From Candidatus Hermodarchaeota archaeon (lineage in GTDB: Archaea > Asgardarchaeota > Thorarchaeia > Thorarchaeales > Thorarchaeaceae), in contig JBHLLF010000020.1 of assembly GCA_048885865.1 (NCBI GenBank), forward strand, positions 1-50,865: a stretch of DNA of 50,865 nt. The letters run 5' to 3'. The notes beneath the pieces were generated by a model. The model was not told the DNA's origin and did not search any database. It was given only the letters and a program-made list of their open reading frames with translations. Position 1 is the stretch's first letter; the number at the start of each line of letters is the position of its first letter. The position numbers were made by a program, and so were the translations under genes. Positions 33,974 through 37,548 of this stretch are shown piece by piece.

Positions 33974-34108
33974 GTTCCAAATGGCTCCAAAAGGGGGCCC
34001 CAAAGAGTTATGCGGAGCATCTAGTGACAAGCTTTTTTAGGCACTCACCGCTGAACGTCTCAGACTAGCTCCTATAGACCAGTCTATACAGGGACCGGAG
34101 ATAGAAAA

Positions 34109-35248
34109 ATGCCCGTTGCCATGCTCTTGATCGACTGGGACAGCAAAATCGGCGCAGTGCTGAAGGCCAAGGTTCCAGCCGACTTCGCGGACTATTACCG
34201 AGAAGACTTGAACACCGAGATCATGAGGATATTTACCTCGCACGCTATGGGTGACGCCACAGCTGGTTTCTCATCCCTCAGTGTTCGCATTGGAGGAGAA
34301 GAGTATAATGTTGCCTCCTATTATACTGGGATTGTAAGAGAGGAGGAGCAATACTGTATCAGTTTGCTTCTAACCCCCTCTGAGGATCCGAAGATCTATG
34401 AGGCTGCAATCACTTCAATTGTATCGCCGCTAACGAATGCTGTCGTGGCGATGACCGATGCAGAGCTCAAGACGGAGCTCGACAATACATACAGGCGAAT
34501 TATACGACTCGCCGGCATGACTGATGAATCCAGACTTGCCCGTCTCTTTTCGGATGAGATTTCACGCGCGGTCTTTCCAAAACTTTGGAAGGGAGGCATC
34601 TCCAAAGAGGACCTTGAGGAATGGCTCAAGATGGTCACGGGTCTACCTAGTGTGTCAGTCGATTCAATTATCGCTCCATTTGAAGAGCTAGGTCTCGTAA
34701 AGAGTGAATGGGTCGATGAAATCGGTCGAACCTGTGTATTCATGATAAAGGATCTTGAGGTGTTTCGTGCTCCACCATTGCTCTCAATGGAATCTGCAGG
34801 ATCTGTGCTTGATCCTGAGCTCACTGCGGAATACAAGTCAGAAGTGCTTGAGTTCCTTACAGAATGGCAGAAGACACCGGAGGATACAGTATCCGTGGCA
34901 TCTATTCTTGCAGATCCAGACTGCTATGACACTCTAAATGAGCTCAGACGTAGACCCGTAAACATCTCGGAGCTCGAAGCCACCTTGGGCATTCCTCCGA
35001 AGGAACTAAAGCAGGCCATTCAGACATTGAAGAAGTATAGAGTAGTTTCAGAACGAAGAAGAAAGGGAGCATCTGGAGAATATGACAAATGGCTGTTCCT
35101 TCTCAATGATATTCGTGTGAGGCTCTTCTTCCCTGAATACTTCCTCCAGACATTGGTCACTGAGCTGGAGAAGACTCCTGATGATACAAAGGCGATGGAG
35201 ATGGTTCATCACCACCTTCGACTTCTGAGGGATAACTTTCCACGGTAG
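34109..35248 (+). CDS. Longin/uDENN-like domain + winged-helix protein (NPRL2/3-like architecture)
   Basis: N-terminal L..WD.KIG..L...P beta-hairpin typical of longin/uDENN folds; C-terminal wHTH-like segments. Confidence 0.6.
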   Translation: MPVAMLLIDWDSKIGAVLKAKVPADFADYYREDLNTEIMRIFTSHAMGDATAGFSSLSVRIGGEEYNVASYYTGIVREEEQYCISLLLTPSEDPKIYEAAITSIVSPLTNAVVAMTDAELKTELDNTYRRIIRLAGMTDESRLARLFSDEISRAVFPKLWKGGISKEDLEEWLKMVTGLPSVSVDSIIAPFEELGLVKSEWVDEIGRTCVFMIKDLEVFRAPPLLSMESAGSVLDPELTAEYKSEVLEFLTEWQKTPEDTVSVASILADPDCYDTLNELRRRPVNISELEATLGIPPKELKQAIQTLKKYRVVSERRRKGASGEYDKWLFLLNDIRVRLFFPEYFLQTLVTELEKTPDDTKAMEMVHHHLRLLRDNFPR

Positions 35249-35364
35249 ATGGAGGCTCCTAATCCGTTTCGTACCTTATAACCGACAGTATATGCTGTTT
35301 TACTAAAGGAGCCCTTTTTTGGGGCCACTAACCGTCTATGAACCGTCTTTTCGTTATTTCGGAA

Positions 35365-35740
35365 ACCAGAAAGCTTCTTATGTTGCATCATCAAAGTGTC
35401 GATTGGTCTGCACTCTATGGTGTAGGCTGCCTTTGTCGCGGAACGCACGACTTCCCCGTCAAAAGAACTCGCATTCACAACACACGGTCCCTTACGAGTT
35501 CTAGCATTGGACTCTTGGAGCCTGCGCTTCAAGAGGATGAATCCCCTTGCAAACAATACTTGCGCAAAGAGAATTTTCGCGTGCGTTCGGCCTGAAGGCC
35601 CGACGGATGCGGAGGATCGCCTAGCGAGCCTCTGCGTCCCAACATAATCTATTTGCTTCTGCCACGTTAGAATCCTGTATAAGCCGATGCAATCCCCAAT
35701 ACGAAGGGTTGACCGTGAATGCTTTAAAATAGCATTCAAA
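35365..35740 (+). ncRNA. Putative large structured RNA / leader (unknown family)
   Basis: At least six 8-11 bp helices; G-U wobbles consistently favour the + strand; long-range loop pairing 35471-35489 with 35711-35722. Confidence 0.6.
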
Positions 35741-35796: not shown

Positions 35797-37548
35797 TTGA
35801 TCATCAAGACCTACCTGATACGCATATCCACAAGCCAGATTCTTGCAAGTTCAAAGTACTGGCCAATCGATGTTCCAGAAGGCGAAATTCGTGAGTTTCT
35901 AGGGACAAGAAGTGAGATTCAGGAATCTTCCCCTGATAGTTTCACCGAGCTACCACTTGTAATTGATGACAACAAGTACATGGCGATTGAAGTAGTCGAG
36001 GACCTCTTGCTGGTCTACGTGACAGATGCGCAAGAGGATGAACGAGCAATTGCGGACAAGCTGCGAGATGGAGCGACAGCTATCAAGAGTCGCATCCTTC
36101 AGTCTGGCCTACAGACTATGGTAAACGAATACCAATTTGTAATTGAATCATCAATAATTACCAAACTCAAGATAGCATTGGTCGGTGAGGGCGGTGTCGG
36201 GAAAACAACCACTCTACATCTGCTTCTAGGAGACACACCACCAACCCAGTATGTGCCAACAATCGCTCTGAACCTGGAAACAGTGGAGAATATCCGCTTT
36301 GGGAATTATTCTCTGGTTCTATGGGATTTCGCAGGTCAGGAACGCTTCAGAAAACTATGGCGTTTCTACTTCCACGGCGCCGATGTGATTTTCTTGGTCT
36401 GTGACTCATCTCTACGTAATGTCATCATCAGCAAAGATATTCTCAAACTGATTAGAAGGGATGCTCCCAAAGTGCCTCTGTTTGCAATCGCGAACAAACA
36501 GGACAAGCCCAATGTGATGAAACCTGAAGTTGTACAGAAAATCCTCGGAGTTCCTACCTATCCAATGGTTGCTATAGATAAGGGTAGACGCGATGAGATG
36601 CTACGGATTCTCATGAATGCTGCTGCAACATATGTTGGCGTAGCCCTACCTGACCTACCAGCGAGACAGCTTCTTAGATTTACAGACGAAGCAACTGAGG
36701 ATGCCATTGCAGAAGTGGAAGCAAGGGCTGCGCGTTTGCAGGAAGAGGATGAGGACTACGAGGAAGTTGAGGTAATTGAGGAGATTCTGGTCGACGAAGA
36801 TGGTCACGTAATAGAGGATGGAGAGGATTACGAGATAATCGAAGAAGTTGTTGAGGAGATTGATGAAGTACCATCACAGGAGGTTGAACCTGCAGAAACC
36901 GAGCCAATTGAAGCCCCACAAGATGAAGGTGCTGAAGAGGGCGAACCAGGGGCAGAAGAGATAGCCGAAGTTGAACCTGTAGAAGCGGAGCCTCTGAAAG
37001 TCCTTGAACTGGAGGAAACTGATGAAGTCACAACTGAAGTGGTTGAGGAAGAAGAGATTCCTGAAGAGGCAGGTGAGCCGCCCGAGGAAGAAATCGAAAT
37101 CGTGGAAATTGAGGGTGAACCAATCTCGGAAACAGCTAATCAGGTGGACATTGAATTTGTTGCTGATGCGCCATCTAAAGAGGAAGTCGCTGTTCCTCAG
37201 GACAATGGGCGCCAAATGGCCATCGATCTTATCTTTGACGCTTTGGAGGCTGACGAACTAATCAGTGCTGAGATTGAGAAGGTATCAAAAGAAGAGCTTG
37301 ATACTGCGTTAGAAGCCTTCTCTCACGATGAAGTTCTTCCTCCCGAAGGCGAAGAAGGAGAAATCGAAAAGGACCTTGACGAGGACTCGAAGAGGGAATT
37401 GGCCATGTTTCTGGGGGTTTCTGAACCTTCAAGGCGAGATGATGACGATGAATCTGATGAAATGGATTCAGTGGATCTGGATGCCATCCATGAGATTGAT
37501 GCGATTCTAGGTATCACCACAGATGATGAGTCCGATGAATCTGATTAA
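35797..37548 (+). CDS. Longin-like domain + Arf-like small GTPase + long acidic disordered tail
   Basis: GEGGVGKT, PTI, WDFAGQERFR.LW..Y, NKQD; Glu/Asp-rich C-terminal half; RBS GGTGA. Confidence 0.85.
   Translation: MIIKTYLIRISTSQILASSKYWPIDVPEGEIREFLGTRSEIQESSPDSFTELPLVIDDNKYMAIEVVEDLLLVYVTDAQEDERAIADKLRDGATAIKSRILQSGLQTMVNEYQFVIESSIITKLKIALVGEGGVGKTTTLHLLLGDTPPTQYVPTIALNLETVENIRFGNYSLVLWDFAGQERFRKLWRFYFHGADVIFLVCDSSLRNVIISKDILKLIRRDAPKVPLFAIANKQDKPNVMKPEVVQKILGVPTYPMVAIDKGRRDEMLRILMNAAATYVGVALPDLPARQLLRFTDEATEDAIAEVEARAARLQEEDEDYEEVEVIEEILVDEDGHVIEDGEDYEIIEEVVEEIDEVPSQEVEPAETEPIEAPQDEGAEEGEPGAEEIAEVEPVEAEPLKVLELEETDEVTTEVVEEEEIPEEAGEPPEEEIEIVEIEGEPISETANQVDIEFVADAPSKEEVAVPQDNGRQMAIDLIFDALEADELISAEIEKVSKEELDTALEAFSHDEVLPPEGEEGEIEKDLDEDSKRELAMFLGVSEPSRRDDDDESDEMDSVDLDAIHEIDAILGITTDDESDESD

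Follow-up and report, generated by a model that had tools for sequence, protein, structure and literature searches.

Several base-pairing small RNAs (sRNAs) of Firmicutes, among them LhrC, RsaE, RNAIII, SprD, and FsrA, share a UCCC motif, and LhrC carries three redundant C-rich pairing sites (PMC4132741). In the archaeon Methanosarcina mazei, sRNA162 uses a single-stranded region to mask the ribosome-binding site of a neighbouring operon, being at the same time a cis-antisense RNA that overlaps its target (PMC4152357). The predicted RNA described here lies on the forward strand of a window of 50,865 nt (the whole stretch of DNA that was analysed, from a Candidatus Hermodarchaeota archaeon), within a 548-nt gap between the gene for a 379-aa protein (34109 to 35248) and that for a 583-aa Arf-like GTPase (35797 to 37548). 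Like the UCCC-motif sRNAs, it has redundant C-rich motifs in loops or single strands that are complementary to a G-rich site 5' of a start codon. It differs from them in being archaeal and in having no sequence or Rfam relation to them; its box matches a specific site beside the Shine-Dalgarno sequence (SD) rather than the SD itself; and it has a larger multibranch scaffold, extra invariant motifs, and one conserved partner, with a pairing that is predicted from sequence. Like sRNA162, it is an archaeal RNA proposed to act on the ribosome-binding region of a neighbour, but it lies downstream on the same strand without overlapping that gene, carries short repeated boxes, and is conserved family-wide. 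In being single-copy, structured, putatively promoter-driven, and within the range of 200 to 350 nt, it recalls archaeal signal recognition particle (SRP) RNA (RF01857) and RNase P RNA (RF00373), yet neither model matches it, the RNase P RNA gene of this genome is elsewhere, and relatives also have an SRP RNA at another locus. Like OLE, an orphan large structured RNA of bacteria, it is highly conserved in sequence and structure; unlike OLE, it is smaller, Thorarchaeota-restricted, and without Rfam similarity. The proposed mode is like that of the UCCC-motif sRNAs or sRNA162, yet the RNA is a member of neither. Literature searches turned up no report of a regulatory RNA from Thorarchaeota or any other Asgard archaea, and no paper on this GGUCCC-box RNA.

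Comparison with known RNA classes

Searches against Rfam 15 returned no relevant match for this region up to an E value of 10, none up to an E value of 1 in ten homologous loci, and none in the window. The genome's archaeal RNase P RNA was located elsewhere (C4:63429-63766, 162.6 bits), and that identity was rejected. No SRP RNA was found in this genome's assembly, from which it is probably missing as an unassembled gene; a divergent SRP RNA was rejected because relatives encode SRP RNA at one locus and this element at another (e.g., on C58 and C6 of genome G015). ARAGORN detected no tRNA or tmRNA here. A guide for rRNA (H/ACA, C/D, or U3-like) was discarded, there being no GGGACC common to two 16S and three 23S Thorarchaeota sequences. 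Separately, the 16S rRNA match at one locus (L094, G024:C2:589938-592348) measured 2,411 nt versus about 1,540 nt in G034, a difference of about 870 nt that implies an insertion, which might be an intron. Known ribozyme models gave no match in the Rfam search, and likenesses to U6, group II domain V, RNase P CR-V, a group I P element, and K-turns were dismissed for want of model support and of consistent pairing by eye. A riboswitch or 5' leader class was also rejected, since the element is not consistently 5' of a co-oriented gene and the alternative pairing is not conserved. An earlier sequence-only reading of the locus had seen no RNase P, SRP, or group I/II identity and had proposed an undescribed structured RNA on the forward strand. 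The Rfam comparison that it called for bore out the first statement, and the second agrees with that comparison and with the family-wide conservation and covariation reported below; nothing in the analysis supports its suggestion of a ribozyme.

Distribution of the RNA

A DNA search matched 14 of 16 genomes of the same genus. Homologous loci were collected with the upstream gene as the anchor, the spacer being fetched from all genera; a covariance model scored 75 of the 76 loci, and three further genomes were added later, so that every one of the 16 genera in the Thorarchaeota family has the RNA. The model also matched 24 of 26 family genomes in a phylum-wide sample, with a single copy in each. 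No credible copy was present in 124 other Asgard genomes, in which two weak partial matches both lacked the motifs. Weak model matches in G136, G056, and contig C218 of G031 were rejected as coding-like sequence in which the motifs are missing. In a genome of the sister family (G037), the gene pair is kept with a spacer of 126 nt, and both the RNA and the leader box of the upstream gene are absent. Among the viral and bacterial pattern matches listed, none was scored by the model. A decayed copy with eroded boxes and promoter, below detection by the model, was seen at positions 100 to 420 of locus L062 (G027, a genome that is 98% complete). The element is very probably a genuine RNA gene, absent from catalogues, whose folded product is restricted to one Thorarchaeota family.

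Extent, strand, and conserved fold

The predicted gene spans 35405 to 35643 on the forward strand (about 240 nt), and the covariance model matches its conserved core at 35438 to 35643 with 140 bits. The sequence-only reading had drawn a structured RNA of about 370 nt. Its region, 35365 to 35740, does outdo all shuffles in folding (z = -4.03) but is too wide for the RNA; 35404 to 35645 folds better than every shuffle, with z = -4.91. Homology to distant genomes of the same genus in the DNA search stops at about 35642 to 35643, and the 5' end is placed near 35405 from the spacing to a TATA-like motif. Paired columns contain 225 G-U versus 35 A-C cells, which fixes the forward strand, as had been read from G-U pairs before.

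In the covariance-model alignment of 75 sequences, 90.5% of cells pair and two-sided change is seen in 29 of 30 pairs, figures that are somewhat inflated because the alignment was fitted to the model; slid controls of the same alignment paired at only 31 to 47%. The conserved fold consists of a long closing stem round a multiloop, followed by a terminal hairpin. The closing stem (35429 to 35599, formed by 35429-35433/35595-35599 and 35441-35449/35580-35588) shows two-sided change in 10 of its 10 modelled pairs, which head an independent mutual-information list. Within the multiloop, the alignment and the mutual-information analysis mark two single-stranded motifs, the near-invariant CCCCGUC (35454 to 35460) and the conserved CUUGCGCA (35559 to 35566). 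The multiloop also holds a conserved helix (35464 to 35502, pairing 35464-35471 with 35495-35502) in which 95% of cells are paired and seven of eight pairs covary, and whose loop exposes a near-invariant GGUCCC box (box 1, ACGGUCCC, 35484 to 35491). The position of box 2 (35504 to 35514) reads UUGGUCCC in most genera and the degenerate UUGGACUC in this genus. All 12 modelled pairs covary in the terminal hairpin, which begins GGAUGCGG (35605 to 35639).

Two further hairpins differ among lineages: an optional 5' hairpin at 35405 to 35428, which some lineages have and others do not, and one within the multiloop at 35512 to 35535, variable in the alignment across genera. The six helices originally proposed are all present here at their given coordinates but are not all conserved across the family. 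Those at 35441-35449/35580-35588 and 35464-35471/35495-35502 and the hairpin at 35605 to 35639 are family-conserved and covarying, whereas the hairpins at 35406 to 35427 and 35512 to 35535 are lineage-variable, and the helix 35378-35385/35640-35647 reaches at least 7 bp in 5 of about 60 genomes and overlaps the TATA-like motif. Several g5 genomes (loci L066, L069, L070, L087, and L092) carry the same insert, about 19 nt long, behind CCCCGUC, and a hairpin insert carrying a third box was observed in genera g8 (L048), g3, and g9.

Putative promoters, neighbours, and independence from the GTPase gene

A putative BRE/TATA-like promoter, GAAAG-CTTCTTAT, lies at 35369 to 35382 on the forward strand. 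It is found 24 to 71 nt before the core in nearly all genera and resembles elements about 30 nt 5' of this genome's tRNA genes, such as that for tRNA-Val; taking it as the promoter puts the RNA start near 35405. (A tRNA-Sec gene at G000:C4:15723-15813 has a promoter-like motif of its own, and many tRNAs of this genome contain introns.) Upstream, a T6 tract at 35315 to 35320 in this genus is a likely terminator of the preceding gene; tracts of T5 or longer occur in 14 of 15 g1 genomes and are patchy elsewhere. These features suggest that the RNA may be its own transcription unit. The RNA is always 3' of the upstream gene on the same strand, and the sole conserved partner found for it is the leader of that gene. 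Both facts would suit a 3'-UTR element, in which the upstream mRNA reads through and the structure pairs back with its own 5' leader in a closed loop. Against this stand the conserved promoter-like motif immediately 5' of the RNA, the T tract that separates the two in g1, and four genomes (G068, G109, G025, and G073) in which 0.8 to 1.3 kb, including a whole gene in two of them, intervene while the box persists. We regard the 3'-UTR reading as quite unlikely.

Downstream, the Arf-like GTPase (N-terminal domain plus acidic tail; Pfam Arf, E = 8.7e-21) has a putative BRE/TATA-like motif of its own at 35711 to 35729; genus g3 has a comparable motif about as far from the gene, the shared form being ACCGTGAA..TTTAA. 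In g5 and g7 (L035 to L040 and L066 to L091), a conserved ACACA-AGATTAT / TTAATCT-type motif lies 40 to 90 nt 3' of the RNA, before the GTPase gene, of which it is probably a promoter or operator. The sequence-only reading had offered as one possibility a riboswitch-like leader of the GTPase gene, with a long-range pseudoknot or switch. The RNA is indeed co-oriented with that gene in most genomes, and the complementarity of the box 1 loop to 35711-35722 exists here as 7 + 5 bp. The partner, however, is not conserved; it is present in six genomes of one subclade only, has uncompensated mismatches at L003 and L005, and coincides with the GTPase gene's putative BRE/TATA-like motif. The competing pair TTGCATC (35383)/GATGCAA (35686) likewise exists without being conserved. 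An internal CCGU/ACGG pseudoknot suggested by RNAalifold was rejected, as it shows no two-sided change and is absent from the mutual-information list, and mutual-information analysis of the family alignment revealed no conserved pseudoknot. Moreover, the next gene after the RNA is convergent in genomes of six genera (g4, g5 [G079], g6, g9, g10, and g12), at a distance of only a few bases from the RNA end in g12, and the RNA and the GTPase gene are at least 1.1 kb apart where this is so; it follows that the RNA does not serve as a leader of the GTPase gene. Together with the lack of an Rfam match, this makes a GTPase leader, pseudoknot switch, or ribozyme highly improbable, and a regulatory link is likely to the upstream gene and not to the downstream GTPase gene. 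In g4, g6, g10, and g12 (L058, L059, L050 to L052, L060, L061, and L089), the gene lying convergently between the RNA and the GTPase gene encodes 300 to 360 aa, in L060 a GNAT acetyltransferase, which suggests either an ancestral arrangement or repeated insertion.

The upstream gene and its leader box

The proposed target encodes a longin plus winged-helix (longin-wHTH) protein with an NPRL2/NPRL3-like layout, 82 to 100% identical across the family. Its structure, predicted from a deep alignment (pLDDT 93), matches a Lokiarchaeota longin (8yqg, Z = 12.8), the GATOR1 complex (8fw5_B, Z = 12.2, rmsd 2.7 over 125), and a chain of the SEA complex (Z = 10.9) in its N-terminal longin, and has a structural match for the C-terminal winged helix (Z = 9.4). 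The shared fold of the modelled protein does not by itself demonstrate function. Paralogues occur across Asgard archaea, without the RNA where inspected.

The gene has a promoter-like motif at 34024 to 34040, with 67 to 85 nt from TATA to start in most genomes. The leader (34056 to 34108) is near-constant in length over L127 to L186, with about 100 nt from TATA to start in g12; it often holds a CUCC-like stretch that could base-pair with the SD, in folds that are weak and not uniform. At L175 (G031), ATT rather than ATG, a possible non-canonical start, stands at the start position behind GGAGG. The candidate target box, AGGGACCG, occupies 34090 to 34097 (site 34090 to 34101, forward strand), with the box proper at 34091 to 34097, and abuts the SD-like GGAGA at 34097 to 34101. 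It can form 8 bp with 35485 to 35492 in box 1, so that a conserved unpaired box of the RNA is complementary to a conserved site at the ribosome-binding region. GGGAC was present in 60 of 74 leaders, representing 12 of 16 genera. In this genome, the 7-mer GGGACCG occurs in 2 of 2,563 leaders and any 8-mer complement of the box 1 loop in 19 of 2,563. The leaders of four control genes (GTPase, tmk, and two others) had no such conserved box. AGUCCC boxes were confined to g5 and g8, where the leaders read GGGACU with one GGGACA exception and up to 11 contiguous pairs extend into the SD. G031 and G027 have lost the leader box, and their RNA boxes are degenerate. Whole-region duplexes favoured cognate genus pairs over permuted ones (P = 0.003 to 0.007) in what was one of several tests run, scoring long duplexes irrespective of each RNA's own fold; the downstream-leader control (P = 0.81) and shuffled controls displayed no cognate preference.

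The box also stands near both predicted start sites and the upstream protein carries winged-helix domains, as would be expected if GGGACC/GGTCCC were a DNA operator at both loci, for instance for that protein, while the RNA did an unrelated job. That the boxes sit on one strand at variable spacing, in loops closed by covarying helices, argues against an operator, and NPRL2-type wHTH domains are not known to bind DNA; we consider the operator very unlikely.

Tests of the pairing and the protein-binding alternative

Other tests favoured the pairing less. Box-anchored covariation was not significant (P = 0.09 and P = 0.30 to 0.38), and when the box 1 loop was ranked by energy against leaders, the leader of the upstream gene came only 54th of 2,552. 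CCCCGUC had no partner in that leader (rank 1,391 of 2,552), nor had CUUGCGCA, and the pairing model assigns no role to these two motifs or to the near-invariant sequence within the helix. The box complement was not enriched near starts genome-wide, and no second conserved target was found among the gene leaders compared. For two additional candidate targets, as for the tmk leader, conservation stops at a subclade, and they were rejected; so were a two-site model of box 2 with an upstream CCA site, which did no better than shuffles (P = 0.6), and a partner for the leader box within its own coding region, where synonymous sites vary freely.

Perfect RNA boxes are retained although the leader box is gone in g4 (three genomes), g13, and g12 (G103 and G104). 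This retention, the repetition of the boxes at unpaired positions, the near-invariant sequence within a helix, three unexplained motifs, and the missing genome-wide enrichment near starts would all suit a protein-binding scaffold or sponge of CsrB- or 6S-like logic, in which boxes and invariant motifs are protein or tertiary contacts and the similarity to the leader is secondary. A sponge, however, should copy its target motif in the same sense, whereas the leader has the complement, and the conserved box of the adjacent gene would be left unexplained; protein binding is possible but doubtful.

Proposed mode of action

Since the GGUCCC boxes have their match in a conserved site next to the ribosome-binding site of the NPRL2-like gene, the RNA may most plausibly regulate this adjacent longin-wHTH gene through base pairing in trans. 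The seed is short and the model accounts for one motif only, for which reason we give it an even chance. In this model, the RNA would be an independently transcribed, structured molecule of about 200 to 260 nt. Its closing stem holds a multiloop with two or three GGUCCC boxes in unpaired positions, of which one lies in the loop of a hairpin and the other one or two lie in the junction. One such box would pair over 6 to 11 bp with GGGAC(C/U) directly 5' of the SD in the roughly 50-nt leader of the longin-wHTH mRNA, and this pairing would alter translation of that mRNA. Repression by occlusion of the ribosome footprint appears more likely, and activation by opening of an anti-SD helix is possible. 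It is conceivable, though in our view unlikely, that exposure of the GGUCCC boxes is gated by a protein or small molecule bound to the invariant core of the multiloop; the RNA would then represent a class of Asgard ribonucleoproteins or sensor RNAs that is new. Such gating would amount to RNA-level control of an NPRL2-like regulator/Arf-like GTPase module, a prokaryotic relative of eukaryotic nutrient-signalling machinery.

Because the RNA was found in one family only, it says little about the eukaryotic ancestor. As a new RNA family it is well supported, and it comes with a concrete candidate target, a highly conserved eukaryotic-signature gene whose longin has its best matches among longins of the GATOR1/SEA type and of Asgard archaea. 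Pairing, if real, would mean that a eukaryote-like GTPase module is under post-transcriptional control in an Asgard lineage.
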